DNA of 64,000 nt from a virus (IMGVR_UViG_3300031576_000016:1-64000); one strand, 5' to 3'. Positions 2,758 through 45,900 are shown, numbered from the stretch's first letter. Notes: generated by a model from the sequence alone, not told the origin. Numbers and translations are program-made.

Positions 2758-3027
2758 CTACCTCATTTTCATTGGGGTGTTTTTGGGGTACGAGAAGCCC
2801 ATTGCTTTTCGCACATTGATGACCATGCGAGTAGCCCGGTTCGCACTGGCCGCGTGGCCTTGGTCGCCACAGCCGGTGTTGTAGCGATGGGACAGGTAGC
2901 CATAGAGCATTGTGGCACGTTGAATCAACGCGGCAAGCTCCTGTTCCATCTCCTGCTTACCTTGCTGTTGTTCCAACAGCTTCGGCCAATCGACAAATGG
3001 CTGTTCGAGAAGTTCTTGCGTGGTCAC
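2758..3027 (-). CDS. Hypothetical protein
   Basis: GTGA overlap; tiles the operon. Confidence 0.7.
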   Translation of the reverse strand: MTTQELLEQPFVDWPKLLEQQQGKQEMEQELAALIQRATMLYGYLSHRYNTGCGDQGHAASANRATRMVINVRKAMGFSYPKNTPMKMR

Positions 3028-3218
3028 GGTCGCCTTCCTTTCACTTCGGCCATGCCGACCTTGTTGCCGTTGGCATCGTGCAGTGACACATTGGTGCCAT
3101 TTGACAATTCAGCACAGCTTTCAAGTTCAAAGGCCAGTTCACGGAGGATGCGGGCCGCTTCGCTTCCCGCATCCTCAAAGGCCGCATTGTCCATGTTGAT
3201 TGTGATGACCAGTTTCAT
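3024..3218 (-). CDS. Small conserved-looking phage protein
   Basis: MDNAAFED...ARILR...DANGNKVG pattern; ATGA overlap at 3215-3218. Confidence 0.75.
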   Translation of the reverse strand: MKLVITINMDNAAFEDAGSEAARILRELAFELESCAELSNGTNVSLHDANGNKVGMAEVKGRRP

Positions 3219-29133: not shown

Positions 29134-29135
29134 GG

Positions 29136-29298
29136 GTGTATGTAACGAATGGCGATGGACCTTATGGCAGCAAGGGTTCCGCTCTCTTTGAGAGGTCAGT
29201 ACCTTCTACTCCTGGTCCGGTAGTAACGGTGCGTGTCGAAACTCCGCGAGGAGAAGGCCAAAACCAGGCATCGCCTTCATTCAAAGTAGGAAACACCA
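29136..29298 (+). promoter_or_regulatory. GTGTA motif plus structured 5' leader of the protease/scaffold gene
   Basis: GTGTA at 29136; several complementary segments including a GNRA-capped hairpin. Confidence 0.4.
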
Positions 29299-30912
29299 AT
29301 GTACCAGATTCCAATTTTCAAAGCTGAGCGGGACGCCGGCCTGGTTGAAAAGATTCGGGCGTCCGCCAGCGTTGCGTTTGCCTCGGCGTTGACCCTGAGC
29401 GACAAGGTCCTCATGGGCAAGAACTACGAGGACAAACTGCGCAAGTTTGCTCTCGGCTTCGCCGGCTCGAAGTCCAAGGCGTCCATCGAAGACTTTGACC
29501 TCCACTACCTGAAGACCATTCTGGTTTCGACAGGCTGGAACAAGAATGACGATGTGTTCGAGAGGTTCGAGACCTGGGCAGCGCGGCGCACACCGGAAGA
29601 CAAACCGGTCAACTACGAACACAACTGTTCCGACATCATCGGCCACATGATTGGCTGCTATGTCATTGGTGAAAATTCTGAGTTGGTCACGGACGAGTCC
29701 GTGGTTGATGACCTGCCATCGAAGTTCCACATTGTCGTTGGCGCGGTCCTCTACAAGTATTGGGACAAGCCGGACCTTCAAGAACGTATGGACAACGTCC
29801 TGCGCGAAATCGCTCAGGGCGGCTGGTTCGTGTCGATGGAAGCTCTATTCAAGGGCTTCGACTATGCGGTTGTTGCCAATGACGGCACAGCGCGCATCAT
29901 CGCTCGCAATGAGGAGACAGCCTTCCTCACAAAACATCTGCGGGCATATGGCGGCACTGGTGCTTATGAGGACATGAAGGTGGGGCGCTTGCTCCGCAAC
30001 ATCGTGTTTTCTGGCAAGGGATTGGTTCGCAAGCCTGCCAACCCAGACAGTGTCATCCTTACTCAGGCCAACGATTTTCGAGGAACCTTGGGCAAACTGT
30101 CTGAATTTTTGCGCGCAAAGCTAGAATCGGGGTATTCAGAAGTAGCCTCACTGTCCTCGGATGTGACTCCAAAGGAGCGAAGAGATAACATGGCAACCGA
30201 AAACGAAACACTGCAAAAGCAGCTTGCGGCTCTTCAAGCCGATAACGAAAAGCTTCAGAAGCAACTGGCTGATACCAACAGCAAGCAGTTGGAAGCTCAG
30301 GTCAAGGCTGCTGAAGACGCGAAGGCGAAGTCCGACGAAGCTCTCAAGACAGCGAATGAAAAGATTGTCGCTCTTGAGAAGAATGCCGCGACCATCGCCG
30401 ACGAAGTCAAGGCTCTCAAGGCAACCATCGAGAAGAGTGAAACGGCGCACAAGGCTGTGTCCGACGAACTCAACACCATCAAGGAAAAGGTCAAGACGGC
30501 TGCTCGCATTGCAGCGGTCAAGACTGCGCTGAAGGTCAATGAGAGTGACGCCGAAGCGGTCAAGGCCGCTGAAGAACTGGCGACCACGCTCACGAATCTC
30601 AGTGACGAGGGCTTCGCTGCCCACTTGAAGGCCATCTCGAAGTTCACGCCCGCGCAGCTGCCTCCGAAGGGCACGCCGGCCAAGGACCCGCCGAAGGCGA
30701 CCAACAAGCCGGCTCCGATGAGCGGCAAGGGGTCTGAAACTGAAGACCCGGCTGAAGGCGCTGCCGACTCGAAGACTCTCGACGACGCGGAGCCAGACGC
30801 AGAGGCTGCTCTGGCAACTTCTGAAGCCGCCGGAGCCCAAGTCCAAGCGGTGCGTAAAAGCATCGCGAGCTACTTCGGCTGCGAACCGGACGAAGAGAAC
30901 GCCGAAGAGTAA
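29299..30912 (+). CDS. Prohead protease / scaffold fusion
   Basis: NKNDDxF, KPxNxEH, IIGH, VSME, GxGxVxxPAN protease motifs followed by an Ala/Lys/Glu coiled coil. Confidence 0.85.
   Translation: MYQIPIFKAERDAGLVEKIRASASVAFASALTLSDKVLMGKNYEDKLRKFALGFAGSKSKASIEDFDLHYLKTILVSTGWNKNDDVFERFETWAARRTPEDKPVNYEHNCSDIIGHMIGCYVIGENSELVTDESVVDDLPSKFHIVVGAVLYKYWDKPDLQERMDNVLREIAQGGWFVSMEALFKGFDYAVVANDGTARIIARNEETAFLTKHLRAYGGTGAYEDMKVGRLLRNIVFSGKGLVRKPANPDSVILTQANDFRGTLGKLSEFLRAKLESGYSEVASLSSDVTPKERRDNMATENETLQKQLAALQADNEKLQKQLADTNSKQLEAQVKAAEDAKAKSDEALKTANEKIVALEKNAATIADEVKALKATIEKSETAHKAVSDELNTIKEKVKTAARIAAVKTALKVNESDAEAVKAAEELATTLTNLSDEGFAAHLKAISKFTPAQLPPKGTPAKDPPKATNKPAPMSGKGSETEDPAEGAADSKTLDDAEPDAEAALATSEAAGAQVQAVRKSIASYFGCEPDEENAEE
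30190..30912 (+). CDS. Nested in-frame scaffold protein
   Basis: Internal AAGGAG (30172-77) and in-frame ATG exactly at the start of the coiled coil. Confidence 0.55.
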   Translation: MATENETLQKQLAALQADNEKLQKQLADTNSKQLEAQVKAAEDAKAKSDEALKTANEKIVALEKNAATIADEVKALKATIEKSETAHKAVSDELNTIKEKVKTAARIAAVKTALKVNESDAEAVKAAEELATTLTNLSDEGFAAHLKAISKFTPAQLPPKGTPAKDPPKATNKPAPMSGKGSETEDPAEGAADSKTLDDAEPDAEAALATSEAAGAQVQAVRKSIASYFGCEPDEENAEE

Positions 30913-30948
30913 TCCCAAGACAGAAACCTACAAAGGAGACTTCGTCCC

Positions 30949-31416
30949 ATGCTGAAACCTGACCGAGTAATTCTCGAAACTGACATCACTCTGACCTGTG
31001 AATCCGTCGCAGAGCGCGGCGTCGTCCTATGCCACAAGACCAGCGGTTCTGGTGCGGCGATGGGCGACCATGCAGGCCAGTCCGACTTGTATGCGAACCC
31101 TTCTGGAAAGAAGGTCGCGGGTCTGCTGATGTGCGACGTGGTCAACGTTGACCTCACGCGCTATCACCTGAACTTCCACAAGGACGAAGTCCCTGTTGGA
31201 AACCGCGTGTGGTTGCTCCGCAAGGGCACTGTCGTGACCGACAAGGTCACCGGCTCGCCGACTGCTGGCGCGACTGCGTACTTGACTGCCAACGGCGTTC
31301 TGACTCCGACTGTGTCCGCGACTGGCGGCGTTGTTGCAACACCAAAGGTCGGCGAGTTTGCCGGCGGTCTGGATGAGAACGGCTTCGTTCGAGTTCACAT
31401 CAACCTACCGGCCTAA
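30949..31416 (+). CDS. Head decoration / cement protein
   Basis: Lies between scaffold and capsid genes; beta-rich, Gly-rich, 155 aa. Confidence 0.7.
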   Translation: MLKPDRVILETDITLTCESVAERGVVLCHKTSGSGAAMGDHAGQSDLYANPSGKKVAGLLMCDVVNVDLTRYHLNFHKDEVPVGNRVWLLRKGTVVTDKVTGSPTAGATAYLTANGVLTPTVSATGGVVATPKVGEFAGGLDENGFVRVHINLPA

Positions 31417-31449
31417 CCCACGGACAGAAACCATAGGAGTATGACACAA

Positions 31450-32475
31450 ATGGCAACCAAGCGCCTCAAAAAGCCGACCCCTGAAATGAACGCACTTCTG
31501 GTGCGTGCAGGGTCCAATGACTACGAAGTCGCTCGCGCGGCTCAACGTGAGCTTGCGAAGGCACTCTCGCTTCCCCTGAAGCAAGGTGTCATGAAGGGCG
31601 ACATCATCGCGGGCATCTTCGAGCCCATCCGATTTCAACCGGGTGCCGCAACGGAATTCCCTCTCGACTTCCTCAGCCCAGGAACTGAGAAGGACTTCGT
31701 GGCCTACACGATTCCGAGTGTTGGCCGCATTCCCGAACGTCACATCGAAGGCGATTACGTCATGGTTCCGACCTATGACGTTGGCTCCTCGATTGACTGG
31801 CACCTGAAGTACGCGCGTGACGCACGCTGGGACATCATCGGCCGAGCCATGCTCGTCCTTGAGTCCGGCTTCGTCCGCAAGGCCAACAACGACGGCTGGC
31901 ACACGCTGCTTGCAGCGGGCGTCGGTCGCAACTTGGTCTCCTACGACGACAAGTCCACTGCTGGCCTCTTCACGAAGCGCCTCGTCGCCATCATGAAGAC
32001 CGTCATGCGGCGCAATGCGGGCGGCAACAGTACCTCCCTCAACCAGGGCAAGCTGACCGACCTGTACATCAGCCCGGAAGGTCTCGAAGACATCCGGTCC
32101 TGGGACTTGAGCCAGATTGACGAGTTCACTCGTCGCGAAATCTTCCTCGCTGGCGGAAGCGGTCCTGACGGCGTGGCCGCGCTGTCCAAGATTTTCGGCG
32201 TCGTGCTTCACGACATCGACGAGCTTGGCGTGGGCCAGGAATACCAGGGCTACTACGAAGACACCCTCGGCGGCACGTTCCCGGACGACAAAGTGGAACT
32301 CGTCGTTGGTCTCGACATGCAGAATCGCGACTCCTTCGTGATGCCGATTCGCGCTGAAGTCGAAATCTTCGAGGACCCGACCTTCCACCGTCAACGTCGG
32401 GCTGGCGTCTATGGCTTCGGCGAGCACGGCTTTGCCGTTCTCGACAGCCGACGCATCCTCCTGGGCGCATTCTAA
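31450..32475 (+). CDS. Major capsid protein (HK97 fold)
   Basis: Position, size, strong codon bias and following terminator; start chosen by RBS spacing (31441 is the alternative). Confidence 0.85.
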   Translation: MATKRLKKPTPEMNALLVRAGSNDYEVARAAQRELAKALSLPLKQGVMKGDIIAGIFEPIRFQPGAATEFPLDFLSPGTEKDFVAYTIPSVGRIPERHIEGDYVMVPTYDVGSSIDWHLKYARDARWDIIGRAMLVLESGFVRKANNDGWHTLLAAGVGRNLVSYDDKSTAGLFTKRLVAIMKTVMRRNAGGNSTSLNQGKLTDLYISPEGLEDIRSWDLSQIDEFTRREIFLAGGSGPDGVAALSKIFGVVLHDIDELGVGQEYQGYYEDTLGGTFPDDKVELVVGLDMQNRDSFVMPIRAEVEIFEDPTFHRQRRAGVYGFGEHGFAVLDSRRILLGAF

Positions 32476-32513
32476 GCGTTCCCATCTACCTCCTGTGATG
32501 GGTGCAGGGTTCG

Positions 32514-32547
32514 AGGGGCGGTCCTGATGGACCGCCCCTTTTCTTTT
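32514..32547 (+). terminator. Rho-independent terminator after the capsid gene
   Basis: AGGGGCGGTCC-TGAT-GGACCGCCCCT followed by TTTCTTTT. Confidence 0.9.
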
Positions 32548-32548
32548 C

Positions 32549-32553
32549 GTGTA
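32549..32553 (+). promoter_or_regulatory. GTGTA putative late promoter core
   Basis: Directly after the terminator and before the neck genes. Confidence 0.5.
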
Positions 32554-32576
32554 TCTTCCTTGGGAGGACACTCTGC

Positions 32577-33095
32577 ATGGCACTACCAACTGAACTCACC
32601 GACATACTTCGCGTCTTGGTCAATGACGCTGATTCGACTTCTTACACGGACGCAATTCTGGAAAAGACGCTCGCTGTAGCGGCTCGCCAGGTCACCGTCG
32701 AGATGGACTTCACTCAAGACTTCAAGATTACCATCGGCACGACGCCGGCTATCGCGCCGGACCCAACAGACGATGCTGGTGGAACACGCGACGACTCATT
32801 CATCAACCTCGCGACTCTCAAGGCGGCTTGCATCATGGACCAGGGGGCCGCGCTCCTGGCTGCGAAGCAAGCCATCGCGGTCGGCGACGGCTCATCGAAG
32901 ATTGACTTGCGCGAACGCGCAGCGTGGTTGCTCAAGCTGCTGGAAAAAGGCTGGTGTGCAGCCTTCGAGAACGCCAAGCTCGAATATAAGTCCGGGCAGG
33001 TACAGGTTGCTGGAGCGGCCGTCATGACCCCGTTCCGCCTTTACGCGGCTGGCATGTTCGGCGGACGCGATGTCCGCAGCGTCATGAACTACTAA
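32577..33095 (+). CDS. Head-tail connector (adaptor)
   Basis: LRxLxND...YTDxxL pattern; first gene after the capsid gene; GGAGG RBS. Confidence 0.7.
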   Translation: MALPTELTDILRVLVNDADSTSYTDAILEKTLAVAARQVTVEMDFTQDFKITIGTTPAIAPDPTDDAGGTRDDSFINLATLKAACIMDQGAALLAAKQAIAVGDGSSKIDLRERAAWLLKLLEKGWCAAFENAKLEYKSGQVQVAGAAVMTPFRLYAAGMFGGRDVRSVMNY

Positions 33096-33104
33096 GGAGA
33101 AACT

Positions 33105-33299
33105 ATGGCAGTCCTAATCCGCCTTCGCACTGATGAAGACGTGGTCAACGGTCTGGTGACCGTGCGGCCGCGCGACAACGGAGCCCGCGACGAATATACG
33201 CCGGCTGGGGCTCAAAGCATTCCCTCGGGTGAAGACCCGGGGCACTGGTCCGTCCTGGACGGCCGCTACATCACTGACCCAACAGGATGGAATGGCTAA
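33105..33299 (+). CDS. Small hypothetical (virion?) protein
   Basis: AAGGAG RBS. Confidence 0.7.
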   Translation: MAVLIRLRTDEDVVNGLVTVRPRDNGARDEYTPAGAQSIPSGEDPGHWSVLDGRYITDPTGWNG

Positions 33300-33823
33300 T
33301 GGGAAAAATCTTCACGCTCGATGCCGATGTCAAGAACATCATTCGCGATGCCATCGACGACCTCATTCTCGAACTCGGCAAGGATTGTCTTTTGGTCTAT
33401 CCGCCGAAGATGACTTTGTGCGTCAACTGCGTGAGCGACCCCATCGGACACAAGCCATCCAATCGTTGGAAAAATGGTGGGCCCATGCGCTTTCCTCTGG
33501 GCTCGCTCTGTCCACTTTGCAATGGCGAAGGCAGACGGGCCGAAGAAGTGACCGAGACACTGCGCTTTCTCTGCGAATGGGACCCAAAGAAGTTTCTCAA
33601 GCCGGTTCAAGGCGTGGACCTACGGGTGCCCTACGGCATGTGTCAGACCAAGGGCTACCTTACGGACTTGCCGAAGGTGCTTCGCTGCGACCACATGATT
33701 CTTCAGAACAACATCAGCGGCGTCCTGCGACTGAAGTACAAATTGGCTGGCGAGCCTGGCGACTACTCGAACATCATCCAGGGTCGCTATTTTGTGGCCA
33801 CGTGGGAACGCACCAACCAATGA
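33299..33823 (+). CDS. Head closure / stopper protein with zinc finger
   Basis: CxxC...CPxCxGxG insert; position in the neck module; TAATG overlap. Confidence 0.6.
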   Translation: MGKIFTLDADVKNIIRDAIDDLILELGKDCLLVYPPKMTLCVNCVSDPIGHKPSNRWKNGGPMRFPLGSLCPLCNGEGRRAEEVTETLRFLCEWDPKKFLKPVQGVDLRVPYGMCQTKGYLTDLPKVLRCDHMILQNNISGVLRLKYKLAGEPGDYSNIIQGRYFVATWERTNQ

Positions 33824-34518
33824 TAGACATCACGCTGGACATCGACCCTGTTCTCGTTGAGCAGGAGATAGCACAGGCCCTGGTCAGGAAGTTCTCTGGC
33901 ATTCTCAGTTCGATGATTGGGCCGGTTCGGGCTCGTGTGGCGGAAGCAATCGAGACGCTCATCAAGCAGTCGCCGGAGTATGTCTCTTTGACTGAGTCGC
34001 GCGGCCAACTGCGTGGTGAACTTGGTCTCATTGGCGGCGGTCCCAGGCCGACAATTGACCCAGAGTCGTTCATCAACCTGCTCATCAACACAATTCAAAA
34101 CAATGTCGAAGTTGAACTGGAGCCATTTATCCGGACCGGTTCCACTTTCGTTGGTGGGCTCGTGGTCCGCGTGCTACGCTCGCAATTCGACGACCTGGTC
34201 GCGTTGAGCGGCGCTGTCTACGTCTCTCCCGAGCGCGGCTACAGCATCCCTTGGCTGAATTGGCTTTTGCTTGGAGGTCCCGGGGACCTCATCACAACCC
34301 ATTGGTACATGCACACCGGAGAAACCGAACATAGGTCTCGTACCGGCATGGGCGTCATGGTTCCGGTAGGCGGCGGGCATTCCGGCTGGGGACTTGGGCC
34401 CAACGGCGGCACCCCTGACAACAACTGGTTGACTCGCTCGCTCGCGCCGCTCGTCAATGGGCAGCCGAAAGGCGTCATCCATGTGATTCTCGAAGAAGAG
34501 CTACTCAGGAGGACATAA
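33820..34518 (+). CDS. Neck / tail completion protein
   Basis: Start re-set to MIDITLD (ATGA overlap); position; IPWLxWLL and SRTG motifs. Confidence 0.55.
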   Translation: MIDITLDIDPVLVEQEIAQALVRKFSGILSSMIGPVRARVAEAIETLIKQSPEYVSLTESRGQLRGELGLIGGGPRPTIDPESFINLLINTIQNNVEVELEPFIRTGSTFVGGLVVRVLRSQFDDLVALSGAVYVSPERGYSIPWLNWLLLGGPGDLITTHWYMHTGETEHRSRTGMGVMVPVGGGHSGWGLGPNGGTPDNNWLTRSLAPLVNGQPKGVIHVILEEELLRRT

Positions 34519-35483
34519 TGTCTGACTATACGAAACTGAAGGGCATCCAGCACATCGGCGATGTCCTTTTGAGCAAGACCCTCGAAACCAACATCATCAC
34601 CTATTTCAATTGGGGCCTCCTGGAAGTCGGCGGCTTTTTCAATGTGTCCATTCCGTCGCCCGGCGTCTATGGCGGCGACCAGCACAAGCTTCGCCTGGTG
34701 AGTGAGGACCCATACTACAGCACTGGTCAGGTTTGGGAGGGGTTCCGAAGTGATTGGGTGTGGGAGACCGGCGTCGAATACGACTACCAACCAATCCGCG
34801 TCAGCGGCGTGAATGTCGATGGCACGTTCTACCCGACAGCGACCACGACGGGCACCTATGCTCACAAAATCAACTACCCACTTGGGCGTGTGACATTTGA
34901 CAATGCCATTCCGCCCACCAGTGTTGTGACATGCGAACATAGCTACCGCTATGTCCATTTCACCCACGGCGGTGTGCCTTGGTGGAGGCAGATACAGACC
35001 AACTCCATGCGTGGGGACGACGTTCATTTCCTTCAGCAGGGAAGCGGAGCATGGTCCATCCTAGCTCAAAATCGTATTCAGCTGCCGGCTGTCATTGTGG
35101 AAGCCACGCCACGGACATCGCGCCGGCCATATGAAATCGGCAGCACGCGAGCCTGGGTTCGTCAGGATGTGCTGTTCCATGTCTTGGCTGACAATCCGGA
35201 CGACGTGAAGTTTCTGCACGACGCCATCACCTACCAGTGGCAAAAGCAGTTCTTTCTATTCGACCTGAATCGCATGTTCCAAGACGAGAAATTCCCATTG
35301 GACGCAGGCGGGTCGCCAGTGACCGGCGCAATGATGTATCCGCAATTGGTCGCCCCTACAGGCGAAGGCGGCTACCGCTGGAACATTGTCAGCACGGCCA
35401 ACATGCAGTCTACAGACGCGAGTATGCCCGGGTCCATATGGGCGACCACAATTCGTGGCACATTTGAACTGGATTTACCGTAA
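34518..35483 (+). CDS. Tail terminator-like protein
   Basis: LPAVIVE...RRPYEIG pattern; precedes the tail tube gene. Confidence 0.55.
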   Translation: MSDYTKLKGIQHIGDVLLSKTLETNIITYFNWGLLEVGGFFNVSIPSPGVYGGDQHKLRLVSEDPYYSTGQVWEGFRSDWVWETGVEYDYQPIRVSGVNVDGTFYPTATTTGTYAHKINYPLGRVTFDNAIPPTSVVTCEHSYRYVHFTHGGVPWWRQIQTNSMRGDDVHFLQQGSGAWSILAQNRIQLPAVIVEATPRTSRRPYEIGSTRAWVRQDVLFHVLADNPDDVKFLHDAITYQWQKQFFLFDLNRMFQDEKFPLDAGGSPVTGAMMYPQLVAPTGEGGYRWNIVSTANMQSTDASMPGSIWATTIRGTFELDLP

Positions 35484-35486
35484 GCG

Positions 35487-35491
35487 GTGTA
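35487..35491 (+). promoter_or_regulatory. GTGTA putative late promoter core
   Basis: GTGTA-N9-GGG upstream of the tail tube gene. Confidence 0.5.
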
Positions 35492-35547
35492 AATCTTAGT
35501 GGGCAACGAACGGATAGTCTAACAACCCCACAGGGAGCACAACGAAC

Positions 35548-36573
35548 ATGGCAAATAAGCGCATCTTCTATGCCGTGCAGCAAGCCGCCTTTACCAAGTG
35601 CGGCATCGAGGCGTATTCTTCGCCCGACGACAAGGCTGTTCACGGCCTTCAGAGCCTCGGCATCAACACCAAGTTCAACCTTGAACAGGTGTTCGAGATT
35701 GGTCAGATTTCCATCTACCAAAACATCGAGAACATTCCGGACGTGGAAATCACGATGGAAAAGGTTCTCGACGGCTACCCGCTGATTTACCACCTTGCCA
35801 CGCACGGTGCGACGGTCCCGAGTCTCTCGGGTCGCGCAAACGTCAAGGCAACGGTTGGTCTGTCGATTTTCAACGACACGCAGGACTCCGCGTCCGGCAC
35901 CACGATTGCTCAATGCCAGATGTCTGGTGTGTACGTGAGTTCGCTCGCCTACAACATCCAGGTCCAGGGCAACGCGACTGAGCAAGTCACCATCGTGGGC
36001 AACAACAAGGTGTGGAACAACGCCTTCACCACGACTTCCTTCGACAACGATGACGCGCCGCTCGCGACCGAAGGCGTCAACCGTCGTCAGCACATCAAGT
36101 TCGGTGCGTCTGACCCGGCCGGCCCGGTCAACAGTCACTTGCCGCAGGACATCCCGGGCATCACAAGCTCCGGCACGAACGAACTGACCAACGGCGAGTT
36201 CGGTGCTCACGTTCAGAGCATCAAGGTTTCCGCAAACCTTGGCCGCGAACAACTGTTCGAGCTTGGCCGCAAGGGTCCGTTCCACCGCTACGTCAACTTC
36301 CCGGTCGAAGTTCGTTGCGACATCGAAGTCCTCAGCACGGCCGGCGACCAGGTCAGCGCTCTCGAAGAAGCGAGCAACCTGACTGACCGCAAGATTTTCA
36401 TCTGGATGACCGAAGGCACGAAGCTCGACCTCGGCACCAAGTCCAAGTTGGCCTCGGTCAACTACGGTGGTGCGAATGCTGGTCAGAACGGCGGCAACGC
36501 CACTGTGACCTACAGCTATGTGACCTTCAACGACCTTACTGTCACGCATCCCGAAGACCCGAGCGCGTTGTAA
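35548..36573 (+). CDS. Major tail (tube) protein
   Basis: Beta-rich with an internal duplication (GLQS...EQVFEIG / HVQS...EQLFELG), strong codon bias, followed by a terminator. Confidence 0.75.
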   Translation: MANKRIFYAVQQAAFTKCGIEAYSSPDDKAVHGLQSLGINTKFNLEQVFEIGQISIYQNIENIPDVEITMEKVLDGYPLIYHLATHGATVPSLSGRANVKATVGLSIFNDTQDSASGTTIAQCQMSGVYVSSLAYNIQVQGNATEQVTIVGNNKVWNNAFTTTSFDNDDAPLATEGVNRRQHIKFGASDPAGPVNSHLPQDIPGITSSGTNELTNGEFGAHVQSIKVSANLGREQLFELGRKGPFHRYVNFPVEVRCDIEVLSTAGDQVSALEEASNLTDRKIFIWMTEGTKLDLGTKSKLASVNYGGANAGQNGGNATVTYSYVTFNDLTVTHPEDPSAL

Positions 36574-36584
36574 CCAAACGCTCC

Positions 36585-37055
36585 TCACGGAGCATCCAAG
36601 GCCGAGACATTTGTCTCGGCCTTTTCTTTTTGATGTGGGCAGTAGCCGTAGAAGCCGATGGAGCAGTTGCAGTTCATACATAGAACGCGATACCCTGGCG
36701 GGAAGCCTTCGCGCTTGAGCCAGAGATAGAACTTTCTACCAGTCATGCCAGATTTGCGGTGTTGATTGCCGCCTCCGTCGATGTGGTCGAGAGTCAGAAA
36801 CTCAAGACGCCATTCTCCGCAACACGCACACTTCATGGTTCCCTTGCTGTAGGCTGAAAGAATCTCATGTCGCCAGCGTTGGTAGTCTTTCTTTTGAGCT
36901 ACTCGCTCTACAGCACGAACCTGCGGCTGCTTTCGCCTGGCTCTAGCATAGACATTGTGACATGCTTTGCATATCTCTTGTCGCCTAGCTTTCGACATCT
37001 CTGACATTGGTTTTGTGTGACCGCACTTTTTACACCTGACTTCTGTGGTCTTCAT
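36585..37055 (-). CDS. Free-standing HNH homing-type endonuclease
   Basis: CxxC..CxxC N-terminus; CACCGE...LTLDHI...LCxNCN; antisense and lower GC than its neighbours. Confidence 0.85.
   Translation of the reverse strand: MKTTEVRCKKCGHTKPMSEMSKARRQEICKACHNVYARARRKQPQVRAVERVAQKKDYQRWRHEILSAYSKGTMKCACCGEWRLEFLTLDHIDGGGNQHRKSGMTGRKFYLWLKREGFPPGYRVLCMNCNCSIGFYGYCPHQKEKAETNVSALDAP
36598..36631 (+). terminator. Rho-independent terminator of the tail tube gene
   Basis: AAGGCCGAGACA/TGTCTCGGCCTT followed by TTCTTTTT. Confidence 0.85.
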
Positions 37056-37126
37056 TGTAACCCTTCCTTGGATAACCGTGACTCATCCAAAGGATGATAC
37101 ATTCGCCACGTCGAAGCCGACCACTC

Positions 37127-37221
37127 GTGTAATATCAGGCGGGAGAGTTTCACTCTAGGCGGTGAAACTCAGGATGGTGAAAGATGAAACTTGTTGTTCA
37201 CTACGGAGTGAACCAGCCATC
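37127..37221 (+). promoter_or_regulatory. GTGTA motif plus structured leader
   Basis: GTGTA-N9-GGG, then GAGTTTCAC/GTGAAACTC and GTTCACT/AGTGAAC hairpins. Confidence 0.5.
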
Positions 37222-37247
37222 ATTAGTAAACGGAAGGAACGCAAAGC

Positions 37248-37436
37248 GTGGAACCACTTCAGTACGAAGCAATCTGCAAATACGTCGGCAAGCTCTTTCT
37301 CGAAAGCAACTCACAACTCGAATCACAGTCGGCATTCTTCCACGCGAAGATGCAGGAACTCCGCGAGCAAGTCAAGAAGCTTGAGCAGGAGAGGGATGAG
37401 GCTCTGCGACTCATCGCCACGACGAAGCGGGAGTAA
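37248..37436 (+). CDS. Small coiled-coil protein
   Basis: AAGGA RBS plus GTG start. Confidence 0.7.
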   Translation: MEPLQYEAICKYVGKLFLESNSQLESQSAFFHAKMQELREQVKKLEQERDEALRLIATTKRE

Positions 37437-37438
37437 TA

Positions 37439-38521
37439 GTGCAGCCTCACGAACGCGAACTTATCGTTGCCCGCATCTGCTCGGGCACCGTTCGTTGCCC
37501 GGTCCATTTCGACGGCCGCAACACCACCATCATCATGCGTCAGCCGACGCGCGAGCAACTCTACATCGCCGCCGAACTGTTCACTGATGTGTTTCGGGAG
37601 TCCGAGCTTGAGGGCCTCTTCAGCGAAGATGAGCTTTATGCGTTCTTGATGGACAACGACCTCTGGACTCTGGAAAAAGATAAGCAATACGTCGGGCTCC
37701 CCAAGGACATTGAGGAGTTCAAGCTGAAGCTGTTCAAGCTCACGTTCAAGTCGAATGAGCGGCAAGTCGCACGCAAGGCCCTGGCCCTGGCCAAGAGCGT
37801 CTATGCCGGGCTCGCCGCCGAGCGAGCGATGTATGCACACCTTTCCTGCCAAGGCGCAGCCAATCTTGCACGGAACAGGTATTTGTTGGGCTGCTCGATG
37901 TATTATCCAAACGGAAGCCCCGTCTTCGTTGGCGAGACCTTCTGGGAGGAGCCAAGTGACCTCCTGGACCTGGTCATGCAGTCTCAGAGCCATCTGCGTC
38001 TTGGCGAGGAAGCCATTCGCGAGATAGCCCGGACCGACCCCTGGCGAAGTATTTGGATATGCAGGAAGGGAGAGGGGCACGTCTTTGGCGTGTCGCCCGT
38101 CGATTACACGGAGGAACAACGGTCGCTTGTGGGTTGGTCGAATCTCTACGACAACATCTACGAGCATCCGGACTGCCCATCTGATGACATCATCGAAGAC
38201 GACGACATGCTGGATGGCTGGCTCATCGACCAGCGGAGACAGCGTGAAGCGCGCCAACTCAAGAAGTCCGCCGAAGACATCGTGTCCAACGAAAAGATTC
38301 GTGGCAGCAGCGAAATCTTCGTCCCGGCCGGCACAAGCAAGGATGCCGCGAAAATCAATGAGCTAAACGACGAGATGACTCGGGGCTTGTTGAAGCAGCG
38401 GTTCGACTACCTCAAGAAACACGGCAAGGTTGCTGAACAGGATATGCCGGACACGAAACGTAGGCTGCAAATGGCGGCGGCTGACTTGGGCGCGAAAGCC
38501 ATAACAGGAAAGACACAGTAA
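37439..38521 (+). CDS. Tail-region protein (possible tail assembly chaperone)
   Basis: Lies between the tube and TMP genes. Confidence 0.5.
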   Translation: MQPHERELIVARICSGTVRCPVHFDGRNTTIIMRQPTREQLYIAAELFTDVFRESELEGLFSEDELYAFLMDNDLWTLEKDKQYVGLPKDIEEFKLKLFKLTFKSNERQVARKALALAKSVYAGLAAERAMYAHLSCQGAANLARNRYLLGCSMYYPNGSPVFVGETFWEEPSDLLDLVMQSQSHLRLGEEAIREIARTDPWRSIWICRKGEGHVFGVSPVDYTEEQRSLVGWSNLYDNIYEHPDCPSDDIIEDDDMLDGWLIDQRRQREARQLKKSAEDIVSNEKIRGSSEIFVPAGTSKDAAKINELNDEMTRGLLKQRFDYLKKHGKVAEQDMPDTKRRLQMAAADLGAKAITGKTQ

Positions 38522-38901
38522 TGGACCAAATGGACCGGCTACGCAACGTGGCCAACACTCGTAAGGAAGTTGAAGAGCACGCGACCCAGCGAAGCTTCCA
38601 GGAAGCCTCCAGGCGGCGTCTGCTCAAGATACTCGAAAAGAAGCTCCACACGGCGTTCATCGGAGCCCTGTCGCACGTTGAGACCCACTTCGGTAGGCTC
38701 TGGGGGCATGGCAAGGACGAGATGGATTGCACTGAACAAGAACTGGCCTGGCGTGAGATTTGGAATCTGTGTCGCACGGATATTCTCACCAACGGCAACA
38801 ATCAGCTTCGCGCGGTGCAGGCTGAGATGCAGTTGTACAAGATTGAGTGGAATCGGTATTCCACTCAGCTAGTAGTGAAACGGAATGGCCAGGACGTGTA
38901 G
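38521..38901 (+). CDS. Hypothetical tail-region protein
   Basis: TAATG overlap. Confidence 0.7.
   Translation: MDQMDRLRNVANTRKEVEEHATQRSFQEASRRRLLKILEKKLHTAFIGALSHVETHFGRLWGHGKDEMDCTEQELAWREIWNLCRTDILTNGNNQLRAVQAEMQLYKIEWNRYSTQLVVKRNGQDV
38896..38900 (+). promoter_or_regulatory. GTGTA putative late promoter core
   Basis: Overlaps the stop of the previous gene, 25 nt before the next start. Confidence 0.35.
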
Positions 38902-38925
38902 TATCTGGCACAAAGGAGGAGGCAC

Positions 38926-39816
38926 ATGGCCGACCAAAAGAAAATCGAGAACAAGAAAAACTTCAAGGTCACCGTCGATGACAAGGAACTCAACCTTGCC
39001 GTGCGCCGGCCGGACAACAAAGCCCGCCAAGGCGGACAACAGGTCTACAATCGAGCGTTCCGCCAGGCAATCGAGTCCGGCGCAATCGTTCGAGCCCGCA
39101 TCGAAGCGGTGATGCGCGACCAGAACCTATGGGACGACGCCCGCCAGAAGCGGTTCGAGGAACTCAACAAGCGATTGCTCGATTACGAACTGTCGCTGAA
39201 AAAGGGTGGTCGCAAGCTCAAGGACGCCCGCGAGATGGCCATCCAGATGCGCCGGGACCGCTGGGAACTCCGTAATCTGAACTACGACCGCAACCAACTC
39301 GACCTTCACACGGCCGAGGCTCAGGCCGAGAACGAGCGCTTCAACTACCTCGTCGCGACCTGCACGGTGTATGGTGATACGGGGAAGCCATACTTCAAGG
39401 ACGTGGAAGATTATCTCACGAGGGATAACGACCCCGTCGCTCCTCAAGCGGCCACAACGCTTGGGAAGATGATTTATGGCCTGGACGACGACTTCGAGCA
39501 CCAGTTGCCCGAAAACAAGTTTCTCAGGAAGTACAAGTTCGTCAACGACACACTGCATCTCGTTGACACGACCGGCCGTCTCATCGACGTGAATGGTCGC
39601 CTGGTGGACTCCGAAGGACGCCTCATCAACGAGAAGGGCGAACTGGTGGACACCGATGGCAACCTCCTCACCGAGGATGGCGAGTACAAAGTCGATTTCG
39701 CGCCGTTCTTGGACGACGACGACGAACCGATTTCTGAGGACACCGACAAGAGCACCCAGGACAACGCTGCTCCTGTCGAAGACGAAGAACCCGAACCGCA
39801 AGAAGTCTCGGTCTAA
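38926..39816 (+). CDS. Tail assembly chaperone-like protein with 7-aa L(V/I)DxxGx repeats
   Basis: Directly upstream of the TMP gene; AGGAGG RBS. Confidence 0.55.
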   Translation: MADQKKIENKKNFKVTVDDKELNLAVRRPDNKARQGGQQVYNRAFRQAIESGAIVRARIEAVMRDQNLWDDARQKRFEELNKRLLDYELSLKKGGRKLKDAREMAIQMRRDRWELRNLNYDRNQLDLHTAEAQAENERFNYLVATCTVYGDTGKPYFKDVEDYLTRDNDPVAPQAATTLGKMIYGLDDDFEHQLPENKFLRKYKFVNDTLHLVDTTGRLIDVNGRLVDSEGRLINEKGELVDTDGNLLTEDGEYKVDFAPFLDDDDEPISEDTDKSTQDNAAPVEDEEPEPQEVSV

Positions 39817-39910: not shown

Positions 39911-42900
39911 ATGGCTGATTTCAACATTGTTGCGAGACTTCAGATTCAGCTTCAAGCTGGGTCTGCGGCGGCTGCGGTGCAGCAGCTTCAACAGCAGCTG
40001 CGCAACGCGAACCTGTCGCTCGCCTTCGGCCTCCAGCCGCAAGCTCTTGGTGGTCTCAACAACCTCAACCAGGGGCTTCGCGCGACTCAGGCTGCGGCCT
40101 CAGCAACCTCCTCCTCTCTGCGCAGTACCACCCAGGTCATCAATGATGGCTCCACGGCCATCGAACGCTTTGGGGCTCAAGCCGGGCTCGCCGCTCGCCG
40201 CTTCATTGCCTTCACCGTAGGCGCGTCTACCATTGTGAAAGTCGCGCAAGCCTTTCGAGAAGGTATTGCGGCCGGTATTGATTTCAACCGCACGATGGTG
40301 AAGATTGCCCAGGTTGGCGGCGACACCAAGGGGCAGTTGGCTGAGCTTGCGTCAGAAGTGACCAGGCTCTCGACTACCTGGGGCATCTCGTCCAAAGAGC
40401 TTGCTAACGCGGCACTCGTTTTCAAGCAGGCCGGCTTGTCGGCTCAAGAAGTCAAGGGCCATCTTGAGACCCTTGCCCTCACGGACCTCGCGCCAAACTT
40501 CGAGTCGATGGCTCAGACGGCCGAAGGTCAAATCGCCATCTGGCGTCAATTCGGCACCAACGTAGACCAAACGCGCGAAGCCCTTGGTGCAGCCAACGCG
40601 GTTGCCGGCGGCTTTGCCGTTGAGTCGCGCGACCTTATCGAAGCCGTCCGCAAATCCGGCGGTGCGTTCAAGGCAGCTGGCGGCAGCTTCAACGAGTTCA
40701 TTTCTCTGTTCACAGCCGTGCGTAGCACGACACGAGAATCGGCCGCTGAAATCGCGACCGGTATGCGGACAATCTTCACCCGCATTCAGCGTCCTCAGAC
40801 TGTTGAGTCGCTCCGCGAACTCGGCGTGAATTTGCGGTACACAGCGGATGAAGCCAAGAATCTTGGTCGTGCCGACCTCGAAAATCAGTTCGTTGGTCCA
40901 TATGAAGCCGTGAGCCGCTTGAACGAGGCACTGCGGGACATTCCGACCACGGACCCGCGCTTCTTGCAGGTCATCGAGCAGCTTGGCGGCTATCGTCAGG
41001 TCAGCCGTGTTCTGCCGATGATTCTCCAGTTCAGTGAGGCTCAGAAGGCCCTGAACGTCGCTCAAACCGGCAGCCTGTCCCTGACAGCGGCAGCCGAGAA
41101 GTCTCAGGAATCGCTTGGCCGTCGCTTGAGCCAGGTCAACGAAGAGTTCCTTGGCTTCATGCGAAGCATCGTGGAGAGCAAGGGTTTCCAGAGCTTTGTG
41201 CGGTTCTCCCTGGACCTTGCCAGCGCACTCATCAAGGTCCTGGATGTGGCTCGGCCACTTATCCCGGTCATCACCACGCTCGCCGCAGTCCGTATCGCAC
41301 AGAATTTCGGCCAGACGGCCGGCGGCTTCCTCTCGCACTTCATCGGCACGGCCCCGGGCAGCTTCACTCCGAAAAAGGTTGAACCTGGCGTTCGCTTCGC
41401 CAAGGGCGGTTATGTTCCCGGCTCGGGAGCTACCGACTCGGTCGCGGCTCACGTCATGCCGGGCGAACACGTCACCAAGAAAGATTCGACGCAGTCGGTT
41501 GACCGCCGGTATCCTGGCTTCTTGACAGCCATGAACCAGGGGGGCGACATTGGCGTCGAGAACTATTTCCGACATCGTTTTGCCGATGGCGGCGAAGCCC
41601 GCCAAGGGTTCGGCTTTGGTGACACGGTCAAGTCACTTCTCGCGAATAGCGTTCTCGGCCTTGGACTGCTAACAGGCGTTGATTCCGGTGACGCCTACGA
41701 AGTCGCAAAACAGCGAAGTGGCGAACAAGTCGAGCACGTCCAGAAAAGCCTTCAGGAAGACGAGAAGAAGAAGCGCCAAATCAAGCAAGCTTTCGGCGGC
41801 GAGACGCCGCGTCAGCGCTTCGGCTTTGGTGACAGCGTCAAGAAGTGGCTCTCGACCGGAATCTTGGCAGCCGGCTCGCTCGTTGGTGGTCACGGCCTGG
41901 ACGACCAGGTTTCTGTTGGCCAACAGGAAAAGCGCGACCGCATCGAGAATGTGAAGGAGTCGCTTGAAGAAGAGCTTCGTCGCAAGAACAAGAAGAAGCC
42001 TCAGAAGCTCGGCAAGGGCGGTACGCCCGACCTGGTTGCCGCCGATGGCTCGATGGTTCTGCCTCTCATCGAGAAGCACTTCGACGATGTCAAGCAAGAC
42101 GACCGTGGTCGCTATGTTACAAAACAAAACAATCGCGATGTGTTCTTCGAGTACATGCCAAAAATCAACGCCCTGAAGATTGACTTCTTGCAGGACGGCA
42201 TCGGCGACTTCAAGCACACGAACAAGTCTCTCCAGAAGGGCACACTGTCCTTCCTGCGCAATCTCCAGGGCGTTGCCAAATCTGCTGGCCAAAAGGTATT
42301 CGGCATTGTTGCGGCGGGCTCGGAACAAAAGCGCTCGAAGATTTACAAAGAGGGTCTTGAAAAGCTCGGCTTTGTCGCAGACGACACGTGGTCGGAATAC
42401 TACAAGAAAGCCGCCTTCGGCGGCGAGATGCGGCTGGCCAAGGGCGGCGATGACATCTTCAGCAAGTTGCCGAAGTATCCAAAAGAGGATGAGTCTGAGC
42501 TTCCGCCACAATACGGCAACCCAATCAATGAGTTCATACAGAAGAAAACTGGCCTAAGTAAGAAAGAGATAACTGCCGCTGCTCTTGCCGGGAGCGTTGC
42601 CGCTAATGGACTCCTAGCTGCCACTAGCATGTGGATTCCAGGTTCGCAGCCGGTTGCTACCGGCATTACTGCTCTTGGAATCGCTGGTGTCAAGAAGTTA
42701 CTGAAAAAGCGCCGTGGCTTTGCTGGCGGTCTGGATGTCATGCCAGATGGTCAGCATGAGTCGCTTCGTAATCTGTACGACCAGGTCAAGGAATACGCAG
42801 AGACGCGATTCAGTGCTCACGCTGGCAGCCCGGAAAGCGACCAGAAGAAGAGCAAGGCAACCATCGCTCACATTCGCCGCCTGGCGGCTGCTACACTCAG

Positions 42901-45900
42901 CAGGAAGGAAGTGTTGCAGCGTATCCCGGCCGGCTCCTCGATTGCTGGCATCGGTGCCTTCGGTGTGGCTATCAAGACGCCCGATGGCGACGTGATTCGC
43001 GCTCAGGCCGACAAAGCACCGGACCTCGCAAACAAATACGCCGCTGAGATTGGACGCAAGCCGTTCAAGCCTTGGCAGTACGCAACCGCTCGCCCGCCTA
43101 TTGATGAAGTGTTGCAGCCGACAGCCACGATGACTGTCAAGAAGGGTGAACGCTCAACGTTCATGGAGCGTCTGCCTTATGTGACGCCGCTCACCGAGCT
43201 TCCTCACCATCAGCAGGAAGAAGCTCATGAGAAGGCCCAGGCAGAACTGTTGCCGTCGATGGCCAAAAAGGGCTGGATGCTTACTGACAAGCACAAGGGC
43301 AACCTAGCGGTTGACAAGGCCGGCCGGTTCATCGCGCTTGACCCGGCGACTGCCAAAAAGATGAATGAGGACCAGCAGTCGCGGCTTCTCAGGATTCTCG
43401 CTTCAGACAAAGCGGTTGCTACTGGCCTGCCAGGGGCTCAGGTCGATGAGTCTACGATTCACGACCCGCGTCTGAGTGTTAGCCCGCCAAGTCCAACAGT
43501 GCAGACGCGCGGTCGTAAAAAGTTCGACATCGGCGGCGAAGCCGCTTTGCCGGAAGCAATGAAGTTGTTGCAACAACGCTTCCAGACTTTCGACGTGTCG
43601 CGTATTGCTGAGAACGTGACGTTTCACGACAAGATTCCATCGAAGACTTTCCCAGAGCGTGGCGCGATTGGTAAGTTTTATCCGGAGACGGATGAAATTG
43701 CCCTTTCTCGCCAGTTGAAGTCTCCGCGCCTTCTTGCAAAGACGCTGCTTCATGAATTCGTTCATAGGATTGATTACGACGAGGGCACGCAAAAGCGGCA
43801 TGGCTCTCGCGACAAAAAGTCTGTTCCCGGCAAGTTGGCTGCGCAGCTTCAGCCTGCATGGTCTGAAATGGCGATGCAGAGATATTTCAAGGGTAAGACC
43901 AAGGAACAGTTGACTCCGAAGGAACAAGAGTCGCTGGCATATCTGACGGCTCCACATGAAGTTCTTGCCTACATGGTCTCGGACGTGGCCACTCGGGACA
44001 AGGACCAGGTTCCTGAAGAACATGAAAAGGCTGTGCAGACACTGCTCAGGCGTCACCTACCGGCTCGGCAACCGCAGAAGTACGAACGTGGCGGATGGGT
44101 TGTCCCTGGCGAAGGCAACACTGACTCCTTTCCTGCTGACCTTGCTCAGGGTTCGTATGTCATCCGGAAGTCCTCGGTTCAAAAGCTCGGCGCGTCCAAC
44201 ATCCTGAAGATGGCAACCGGCGGCACTGTCCCGGCATTGCTCATGCCTGGCGAGGTTGTTATTCCGCCAGGTAAGGCTCGTCAAATCGGTCGTCACGCTC
44301 TGACCGAGATGAACCTTCACGGCCGTATGCCGTTCGCTCAGGGCGGCTTTGTGCGGATGGCAACTGGCGACCAGGTGCCGAAACAGGAGACTGTCAAGGT
44401 CGGCGCGCTACCTGAACGTTTTCAGGATGACGTTGAAAGGATGTTTCGTGGACTTGGTGCCAAGGTTCAGAAGCCACTGCATGAACTTGAAGTGGTCATT
44501 GAGCGGTTCGGCAAGAACATTGTCCGCGTTGTGAAGATTGTCGATGTGGCTGTCACTTCTACCGCGTTGCCAAAATCGGCAGCTTCTGCTGCTACGACTC
44601 CAGCAACCAAGCCACAAACAGTGCCTGCGCTGCAAATAGTCCGGGACCTGAAAGCTCACTTGATTGCTCAGGCTGAGGCGGGTGGTAAGTCTGGCAAGCT
44701 TTCTTCCGAGCAGGTTGAGAAGCGCAAGGCTCGCTATGACAAAATGCTCAGTGAGGAAAATCCAGAACGGTCGCTAGAAAAGTATGCCAAGTTTCAAACG
44801 AAGGCCCCGTCCTTCAGTGGTTACTTGGACAAGCGAGACCGCAAGCAAGCTGCCGAGGACCTGAAGAGCACCATCTATACGTCGTACCTGGAGACTGGCA
44901 CGACTAGCAAATACAAGAGCGCCAAAACTCCCGAAGAACGTGGTCGCGTGTTAGCTACGGCTGTGCCAAAGTACATTCGTCAAAATCTTGCCGATTTTGA
45001 GGGTGGTACTGAGACTGGTCGCAGCTATGAGACTGCGAAGAAGACTCGTGGCCTAGAGAGTCAATATCAAAAGGCGCTGAGGACACAGTCGCCAGAAGAA
45101 GCTTTGAAGTCGGTTGTTTATCAGGCAACAGCAAAGCGCATCCAGTATGAAGAAAGCTCTCGTCAAAATAAGGGTAAAGCGCCACGAACCCAAAAAGAGC
45201 TTCAAGCTGCAATTGAGGAACGATACCAGACGCGCATGGGCAAGTATGATGCCCACGACTTTGAGGGGCCGGCTGCGGATGTGGCTCGCGCAAAACTGTT
45301 CGGGCACAAAGACCATATCAAACGCGGTGCCGAGGAAGCTTCTGCACGTACCGGCAAAAGCGTTGACGAAACCAGGGTCGATAGTCTTGAAGCACTCCAT
45401 AGTAGCCTTGGCGATAGTTCTCAGGCTGCGGCCATTTATCGTCAGCAACAAACCACCGGTCTCCAAAGCCAACTAAAGCGCGGTAAAATCAGCCAGGCTA
45501 CTTTTGAAAAGCGAGTGGCCAAGCTCGATTCTCTAAGCGACGATAAGGCATCGAAACTATTACTGTATACCAGGGATGGTACGCTGCGCGAGAAGGTTGG
45601 CAAGCAGCTTGCTGCCGCCGGCATTACCGCCGGTAAGACTCCTCAAGAGACTCGGGAGAACATTGGTAAACGCCTCCAGGAAATGAAGGGAGAGTTGGAG
45701 GCTGCTAAGCCGACAACGGTTCCCGAAGTTGCCGGTCGCGGCCTCACGCCGGAAGAGAAGCGTAAGCGACTCGTTGACCAAGAAGTTCGCGGTGCGACCC
45801 TAGAGTCCGACTTGACTCCAAGCAAAGCCGACTTGAAGGAGTTGCGCAAGGACCCGGCCTTTGTAAAACAAGAGAAGCAAGACGCTGCACCATCAGCCCC

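Follow-up and report, generated by a model that had tools for sequence, protein, structure and literature searches.

Can a phage tape measure protein carry a protein kinase, and could such a kinase act on the host as infection begins? The question is raised by IMGVR_UViG_3300031576_000016:1-64000, a 64,000-nucleotide stretch (hereafter the window) that is part of a 93.6-kb IMG/VR virus record, ~61% complete, in which a single open frame encodes a tape measure protein of 6,291 residues. An earlier note on this DNA had described a protein-kinase-like (PKL) module at 42731-43518, which corresponds to residues 941-1202 of the protein, and had proposed that it is a kinase delivered with the virion. 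Our analysis points to a kinase fold of very reduced size that carries arginine where kinases have their ATP-binding lysine and that probably shares a distant ancestry with the gp0.7 kinase of phage T7.

39911..58786, + strand: the 6,291-residue tape measure protein (P0001), a single open frame and the carrier of the kinase-like module
42833..43435, + strand: the modeled kinase-like domain, residues 975-1175 (AlphaFold2, Foldseek, VIA-align, Pfam and phmmer)

Profile matches identify a genuine tape measure core in the N-terminal part of the protein, which makes the carrier a virion protein. A PhageMin_Tail/TP901-type core is present, with PF10145 (PhageMin_Tail) matching residues 150-360 at an E value of 4e-24 in the Pfam scan and PHROG tape measure families matching with E values down to 2e-20. 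The large terminase subunit gene lies upstream on the same strand, and one relative of the protein, P0003, is labeled a TP901-family tape measure protein by its source.

Active-site motifs are invariant in a family of giant proteins

Translation places every motif that had been listed for the module at its reported residue (GIGAFG at 1013, VIR at 1028-1030, TDKHKGN at 1125-1131 and ALDP at 1142-1145), and the spacings that had been given, +5 from the catalytic Asp to the Asn and +18 to the metal-binding Asp, were likewise reproduced.

42947..42964, + strand: Gly-rich loop GIGAFG, residues 1013-1018, between strands 1 and 2 (conservation; aligns with L-G-N-G-H-F of gp0.7)
42992..43000, + strand: beta3 V-I-R, residues 1028-1030, with Arg at the position of the ATP-binding Lys of kinases
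43091..43180, + strand: R-P-x-I-x-x-V-L-Q (residues 1061-1069) and E-R-L-P-Y (residues 1086-1090), predicted alphaC-beta4 loop and beta5/hinge
43283..43303, + strand: catalytic loop T-D-K-H-K-G-N, residues 1125-1131, with D1126 and N1131 (conservation; profile alignments)
43334..43348, + strand: metal-binding loop A-L-D-P-A, residues 1142-1146, the DFG equivalent, D-P-G in the family (conservation; profile alignments)

An exhaustive phmmer search with a 263-residue query stretch against 1.84 billion cluster representatives returned 17 relatives of the kinase-like stretch, with E values from 8.6e-16 to 5.9e-4 and 28-41% identity. They cover positions 43-217 of the query, placing the family-conserved part of the domain at residues ~983-1157. 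Twelve of the 17 are giant proteins of 3,371-6,440 residues, most of which have the tape measure core, the middle region and the C terminus in common with the 6,291-residue protein.

Conservation was counted over 18 aligned copies of the domain, one protein contributing two. G1013, G1015, V1028, R1030, P1089, D1126, N1131 and D1144 never vary among the aligned copies; the two glycines, which belong to a GxGxxG-type loop (GIGAFG, residue 1013), are kept in 17/17 copies counted, and the catalytic Asp, the Asn at +5 and the metal-binding Asp are each present in 18/18, with the same residues found in PI4K-beta and gp0.7. Other positions are nearly invariant, both in the two loops (H1128 in 16/18, G1130 in 17/18 and P1145 in 16/17) and in the segments between alphaC and the hinge (R1061 in 16/18, P1062 in 15/18, Q1069 in 16/18 and E1086 in 16/18, beside P1089 in 18/18). 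The arginine that had been suspected at the beta3 lysine position is a fixed feature of the family: R1030 is retained in all 18 copies and aligns with the lysine of gp0.7.

A protein of 6,291 residues is expected to contain short motifs by chance, and a reader might ask whether the module is anything beyond a chance motif resemblance within a long, low-complexity protein. We give this explanation negligible probability and treat it as excluded, because the 17 relatives keep exactly these motifs, the fold predicted with high confidence matches kinases and the shuffled controls described below score far lower than the real alignment.

The predicted fold is that of a kinase

AlphaFold2 was run on residues 975-1175 with a 17-sequence alignment, whose core was checked and found to be correct, only the ends being misaligned. 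The resulting model has a mean predicted local distance difference test (pLDDT) score of 92.1 and a predicted template modeling score of 0.80. It begins with a helix, followed by three strands that hold the Gly loop and R1030 (the latter in the third strand, 54-59 in a model numbering equal to the residue number minus 974), a short helix, two long strands and a long helix, and it continues through four short strands around the catalytic and metal loops to a final helix. This order of elements is that of a kinase, and it includes the parts expected of the bilobal PKL fold, namely a five-stranded N-lobe with alphaC, a hinge, alphaE and the catalytic and metal loops. Judging from the secondary structure of the model, R-P-x-I-x-x-V-L-Q would belong to the alphaC-beta4 loop.

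Structure searches with the model lead mainly to kinases. Foldseek gave at least 500 matches in the PDB at E<=1e-3, and the top ones listed were protein kinases (ROCK1/2) and AceK, with probability 1.0; among the predicted viral structures of BFVD, most matches were to protein kinases of viruses and phages, some of them T7-like. A VIA-align comparison with 48,161 representative chains returned a best 50 made up entirely of kinases or pseudokinases (Z 7.4-9.0, with 130-180 residues aligned), including ULK4 (Z 9.0), the CDK8 module (8.9), PINK1 (8.8), AceK, Rio1 and the 216-residue archaeal TkArkI (8.7, over 156 aligned residues). Rv3197 gave the longest structural alignment, of 180 residues (Z 8.2). 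The note supplied with VIA-align rates Z values of 8-9 as middling, and it is the uniformity of this list together with the independent sequence evidence, rather than the height of the Z values, that carries weight for a kinase fold. The PKL fold that had been proposed for the module is thus predicted with high confidence, AlphaFold2, Foldseek against both the PDB and BFVD, and VIA-align all pointing to kinases among the top matches listed, and we conclude from the model that residues ~975-1160 almost certainly adopt it.

The domain ends at the DFG equivalent

The kinase-like domain stops directly after D-P-G, with no activation segment and no alphaF-alphaI lobe. The features that mark Pkinase enzymes beyond this point (activation segment, APE and alphaF-alphaI C-lobe) were not found, and the domain has no Pkinase match in Pfam at E<=1. 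The final helix of the model, which follows D-P-G, is not conserved in the family, and in five relatives the next of the glycine-rich peptides that bound the module (fence peptides, described below) comes only 7-22 residues past D-P-G; this spacing places the end of the conserved domain right after the DFG equivalent. As modeled, the domain is a minimal core: a helix at the N terminus leads into an N-lobe of five strands, and alphaC, which is short and little conserved, is followed by the E-R-L-P-Y hinge, helix alphaE and the two loops.

The nearest family tested is that of T7 gp0.7

We built a gp0.7 profile from T7 gene 0.7 and eight diverse homologues taken from phage records (9 sequences) and compared it locally with the module family using hhalign. 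The comparison of family with family gave a probability of 84.8% and E values of 6.5e-6 in local and 7.3e-7 in global mode, over 167 collinear columns, with ~16% identity to gp0.7 when the profiles were aligned globally. Local mode also gave an independent second alignment, on the catalytic loop, with a score of 30.1 (E 1.2e-3). The real alignment scored 44.3, compared with 12.6 +/- 2.7 (maximum 25.9) for 80 column-shuffled gp0.7 alignments. As a single sequence, T7 gp0.7 aligned over 129 columns at E 0.0036. Among PHROG families, 15752, which is the T7 gp0.7 family, matches at E 0.01, and this is one of four kinase families with weak matches, the others being 3297, 18305 and 2828. Of the families tested, T7 gp0.7 is the best family-level relative.

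The two families, both phage-encoded, agree in a number of details. The gp0.7 seryl-threonyl protein kinases of the Autographiviridae (PF27024, Phage_T7_kinase, a Pfam 38.1 family named by the Atlas search) and the module have in common an N-terminal helical extension, an L-G-x-G-x-F-x-A-A loop, a V-I-[K/R]-V strand, a D-x-H-x-G-N catalytic loop (D-M-H-S-G-N in gp0.7) and D-P in place of DFG, the A-L-D-P-A of the module aligning with T-D-P-V of gp0.7 as well as with I-D-F-G of PI4K-beta. In both, conservation stops a few residues past D-P. The R-P-x-I-P-x-V segment also aligns (R-P-P-I-D-E-V against R-P-G-I-P-N-V), in a single-sequence comparison only. The families differ at beta3, where all 9 gp0.7 homologues have Lys (in a V-I-K-V-G-F-K-K block) and 18/18 copies of the module have Arg. 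They differ also in setting: gp0.7 is a free early-gene product, made after infection and fitted with a C-terminal domain that shuts off transcription, whereas the module lies inside a virion tape measure protein.

The earlier note had cast the module as a prepackaged analogue in role of gp0.7. The comparison with gp0.7 survives in altered form. Given the profile score, the shuffled controls and the details in common, what had been a functional analogy becomes probable distant homology, and we consider the module to be probably a distant homologue of the T7 gp0.7 kinase family on the strength of these alignments. That the carrier is a virion protein is supported by PF10145 and the tape measure PHROGs; the proposed role itself stays a prediction, to which we return below.

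Similarities to ABC1/UbiB, PI4K-beta and other kinases

ABC1 (PF03109) is the only Pfam family to exceed its cutoff in the domain, with 24.0 bits against a cutoff of 22.9 when the domain is scanned in isolation, 23.6 bits in the genome scan and 22.5 bits when scanned in a 400-residue piece; four of six family members match it at E<=1. TIGR01982 (UbiB) matches the stretch of the catalytic and metal loops at E 0.004, and both this match and that of ABC1 are centered on the catalytic loop, residues 1125-1131. A profile of six members searched against PDB sequences gave eight matches, all kinases, aligned on D-x-H-x-G-N and D-[FP]-G, the best being PI4K-beta (E 0.18), which places D-R-H-N-G-N ... 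D-F-G on D-K-H-K-G-N ... D-P. A single-sequence search of the PDB returned one match, to a transcription regulator at E 1.3, which we set aside as chance.

These matches, together with Rv3197, which we take to be an ABC1-family protein and which gave the longest structural alignment, would fit a small-molecule or lipid kinase of ABC1/UbiB or PI3K/PI4K type whose target, at the membrane that receives the tape measure protein, would be a metabolite, a lipid of the envelope or a compound related to quinones; the membrane-type glycine-zipper segments of the protein (see below) would suit such a role. The sequence similarity is confined to the catalytic and metal loops, which are common to all PKL enzymes: the ABC1 match takes in only profile positions 174-230 of 244, or 57 positions, rather than the whole domain, and no similarity to the N-lobe of ABC1/UbiB or PI4K-beta was detected beyond the D-x-H-x-G-N loop and the metal-binding Asp that follows it. 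As single sequences, E. coli UbiB aligns over 35 columns at E 0.11, compared with 129 columns at E 0.0036 for gp0.7. The ABC1 family is defined by a KxGQ motif, and no motif of this type was seen in the family alignment. ABC1/UbiB and PI4K-beta enzymes are also much larger and retain the beta3 lysine, and the periplasm is not known to contain ATP. Taken together, we consider a lipid or small-molecule kinase distinctly unlikely.

A closer parallel in design is offered by the kinases of polyvalent proteins, which occur in phages and conjugative elements, have lost the whole C-terminal subdomain while keeping the active site, and often stand beside HExxH peptidases that are proposed to release the domains, with the T7 kinase cited as precedent (Iyer et al. 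2017, PMC5512222). Like the Kinase-PolyVal family (PF18762), the module is a core without a C-lobe that keeps its active-site residues and is embedded in a giant multidomain protein, and it fits the published account of C-lobe loss with a retained active site; the carriers of Kinase-PolyVal domains are thought to enter the host with the DNA, often with neighboring HExxH peptidases (PMC5512222). PF18762 is also an Atlas feature neighbor of the module, at 0.93. The PF18762 model itself found nothing in the genome at E<=10 and no match at E<=1 among 6 members, and two hallmarks of Kinase-PolyVal do not fit, as the module has no insert between the conserved His and the catalytic Asp and no conserved Glu was seen before strand 2. 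Tape measure proteins are never mentioned in that study (PMC5512222). OspG/NleH (PF22303) kinases resemble the module in being ~200 residues long and delivered by an injection machine, in their case type III secretion, and are an Atlas feature neighbor at 0.94; the PF22303 model found nothing in the genome at E<=10, and OspG is not among the best 50 VIA-align matches. The PF18818 model had no match in the genome.

The module is a fenced, optional cassette

The peptides said to bound the module, GFAGG and FDIGG, are where translation should place them, at residues 936 and 1205, and similar peptides recur throughout the protein and its relatives.

42716..42730, + strand: upstream fence peptide GFAGG, residues 936-940 (translation)
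43523..43537, + strand: downstream fence peptide FDIGG, residues 1205-1209 (translation)
43523..44095, + strand: zincin-like HExxH module, residues 1205-1395, with H-E-F-V-H-R-I-D at residue 1281 (weak matches)

Nearly all giant relatives have a peptide of the type [FYL]-[AS]-x-G-G 156-190 residues ahead of the catalytic Asp, and a downstream one lies 7-76 residues after D-P-G in most relatives and up to 104 residues after it. In the 6,291-residue protein, the pattern [FYLMW][ADSGT]xGG occurs 23 times, compared with 2.8 +/- 1.6 in 500 shuffles. The G-G fence motif may mark where modules meet, where recombination takes place or where the protein is cut. The position of the cassette varies among proteins, from residue 83 to residue 1984, and one protein has two copies. 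That protein, P0007 (6,288 residues, from a Logan assembly), carries its kinase cassettes at residues 907-1001 and 2347-2492, each preceded by an HExxH motif ~150-250 residues upstream. The domain also occurs in a stand-alone form of 187 residues, P0013, which has a Gly/Arg-rich N terminus and represents a cluster of 7 members on several short contigs.

Searching with a hidden Markov model of the domain gave no match in 82 IMG/VR loci of related tape measure proteins, whose open reading frames (ORFs) reach 5,682 residues, nor in 77 such loci of GTDB genomes. We read this absence as the mark of an optional cassette and not as absence from nature. The domain gave no tblastn match in 50,697 phage records, and a related-locus search with it in IMG/VR found none; a protein search with the family alignment returned only P0008, already among the input sequences of that alignment. 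As far as these sequences tell, the module is a self-contained optional cassette, rare, and present in about a dozen giant tape measure proteins.

Directly downstream of the cassette, between FDIGG and YERGG, lies the HExxH module, which contains a further P-H-E. It is a possible processing peptidase, a putative assignment that draws on weak matches to SprT-like (E 0.053) and to PHROG 87, "metallo-protease" (E 0.065); other PHROG matches are to 4529, "minor head protein and DNA pilot" (E 0.0011), and to 6361/1233, of unknown function. Several relatives have a comparable HExxHxxD module close to their kinase cassette, and such modules could be aligned in P0003, P0006 and P0011. An HExxH alignment with the giant proteins came out scrambled and was discarded. 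A single-sequence AlphaFold2 model of the module was poor (pLDDT 63.5), and Foldseek found nothing for that model at E<=0.001.

Possible action at the start of infection

We hypothesize that a minimal kinase of the gp0.7 lineage is carried in the virion as a cassette of the tape measure protein. When the phage infects, this protein would leave the tail tube before the DNA does. The cassette lies in its N-terminal sixth and would come out late, would refold after ejection and might be cut free at the G-G fences by the adjoining HExxH module. The domain would bind Mg-ATP, its invariant R1030 contacting the phosphates in place of the usual lysine, and the released kinase would phosphorylate one or more host proteins before any phage gene is expressed. 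In its entirety, a minimal gp0.7-lineage kinase that is delivered with the tape measure protein and phosphorylates a host protein is a mechanism to which we give an even chance. The sequences and models show the motifs and their conservation, the predicted fold, the homology and the behavior as a cassette; that the module binds a nucleotide, catalyzes transfer to a substrate, refolds, is released by proteolysis and reaches the cytoplasm is what we infer, and the prepackaged delivery of the kinase is likewise proposed by analogy with gp96 of P23-45 (PMC10770324) and with polyvalent proteins (PMC5512222).

In Thermus phage P23-45, pre-early genes are transcribed by a virion RNA polymerase that forms the N-terminal part of gp96, a tape measure protein of 5,002 residues (Chaban et al. 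2024, PMC10770324). Like the carrier described here, gp96 is a giant tape measure protein whose N-terminal part holds an enzyme (a predicted one in the case of the module), and the polymerase of gp96 is at work when infection starts; gp96 differs in that its enzyme is an RNA polymerase rather than a kinase and that this activity has been shown by experiment, whereas that of the module is predicted. This polymerase leads us to consider that enzymes built into giant tape measure proteins can be active inside an infected cell (PMC10770324). Literature searches (open-access papers and bioRxiv) turned up no published kinase within a tape measure protein.

Several observations weigh against an active, delivered kinase. 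The lysine at beta3 and its partner Glu in alphaC were not found: Arg stands at beta3 in 18/18 copies, the family alignment shows no conserved acidic residue in alphaC, and in three short members the alphaC helix is deleted altogether. Substitution of Arg for Lys at beta3 is the classic kinase-dead change and is carried by the KSR pseudokinases. As there is no C-lobe or activation segment, no substrate-binding surface is visible. The query TM-scores are modest, 0.40-0.47 overall (0.40-0.44 for the listed Foldseek matches in the PDB), as is expected where half of a kinase is missing, and in VIA-align pseudokinases tied with active kinases (ULK4 at Z 9.0, STRAD-alpha at 8.6, IRAK3 at 7.8 and MLKL at 7.4). 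A folded domain, presumably present in several copies, is unlikely to fit the lumen of the tube, so that the cassette would have to travel unfolded and refold. Finally, the carrier phage is uncultured.

The module might instead be a pseudokinase or a nucleotide-binding scaffold, with a kinase fold and perhaps bound nucleotide and no phosphate transfer. It would then help to build or regulate the tail during assembly, in setting its length or at ejection, or it would bind a host protein stoichiometrically. The invariant beta3 Arg, the lack of a conserved alphaC Glu, the missing C-lobe and the place of pseudokinases at or near the top of the structural list all favor this explanation. The beta3 Arg and the missing alphaC Glu call for caution about activity; the invariant catalytic Asp, Asn, metal-binding Asp and Gly loop speak for a functional active site. 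In pseudokinases, some of the catalytic, metal-binding or Gly-loop residues are usually missing, whereas here the catalytic Asp, the Asn, the metal-binding Asp and both loop glycines are invariant across 18 copies at ~30-40% identity. The nearest family, gp0.7, is moreover an active kinase with the same truncated design (PMC5512222). We regard a pseudokinase as unlikely and retain an active kinase as the working interpretation.

An active kinase might instead do its work in the producing cell, acting on the tape measure protein, the tail chaperones or other virion proteins during assembly and being carried along inertly at infection. Translation of the domain takes place in a cytoplasm that contains ATP, and the domain may not survive passage through the tail. 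The cassette is missing from 159 related tape measure loci, which means that assembly in this clade does not require it; the stand-alone 187-residue form on several contigs also speaks against a role in assembly, and the RNA polymerase fused to the P23-45 tape measure protein is a precedent that favors action after ejection (PMC10770324). Action confined to the producing cell thus appears very unlikely to us, and delivery of the kinase to the host is the reading that we carry forward. A broader version of this reading would see the tape measure protein as a programmable effector polyprotein, whose fenced cassettes are excised after ejection, perhaps by the HExxH module, and include an active kinase without a C-lobe that uses Arg in place of the canonical Lys and phosphorylates host targets at DNA entry, ahead of all phage gene expression; we offer this version tentatively and think it unlikely as a whole.

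Other features of the tape measure protein and its genome

48077-48193 and 48908-49042, + strand: two glycine-zipper membrane-type segments, residues ~2723-2761 and ~3000-3044 (Pfam)
~41459, 44246, 51992 and 58304, + strand: repeated G-G-x-V-P-G unit, residues 517, 1446, 4028 and 6132 (seen in translation)

In Pfam, the glycine-zipper segments match Gly-zipper_Omp (E 3e-5) and YMGG-like (E 0.002). They fall in the middle region common to the relatives and are a candidate for the membrane-inserting part of the tape measure protein. The protein also contains at least 4 copies of a longer unit, G-G-x-V-P-G-x-G-x-T-D-S-V-P-A-x-L-x-P-G-E-F-V, which matches several PHROG tape measure families and is kept in the giant relatives too.

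Between the terminase and the tape measure gene, in the region 26818-39816, seven large ORFs on the + strand have no PHROG family at E<=0.001, and the four of these seven that were scanned have no Pfam family at E<=0.01. ORF 29299-30912 has weak matches only, including a methyltransferase PHROG at E 1.6e-4. Given the lack of PHROG and Pfam families for large ORFs in this region, the phage appears to be very divergent. The best match of the tape measure core in prokaryote genomes is to a metagenome-assembled genome (MAG) of the Gemmataceae (Planctomycetota), L087, at 45% identity, and the remaining matches are scattered across MAGs of many phyla.

Implications for tape measure proteins and phage kinases

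Phage kinases without a C-lobe are already known; what is new here is both the carrier and the kinase family, which is very reduced and never lacks the beta3 Arg. If this reading is true, the family would be of interest for kinase biochemistry as a core of 150-180 residues that stops with the DFG equivalent and whose invariant Arg takes a position at which Lys is deemed essential. Muralytic domains are known in tape measure proteins. Kinases would join the short list of tape-measure-borne enzymes, of which the P23-45 RNA polymerase is an example (PMC10770324). The fenced-cassette layout suggests that tape measure proteins may be engineerable as cargo carriers. If the module is active and delivered, host proteins would be modified before phage gene expression, a timing unlike that of the T7 kinase, and this may be a way for the phage to disarm defense or to seize host machinery at entry.

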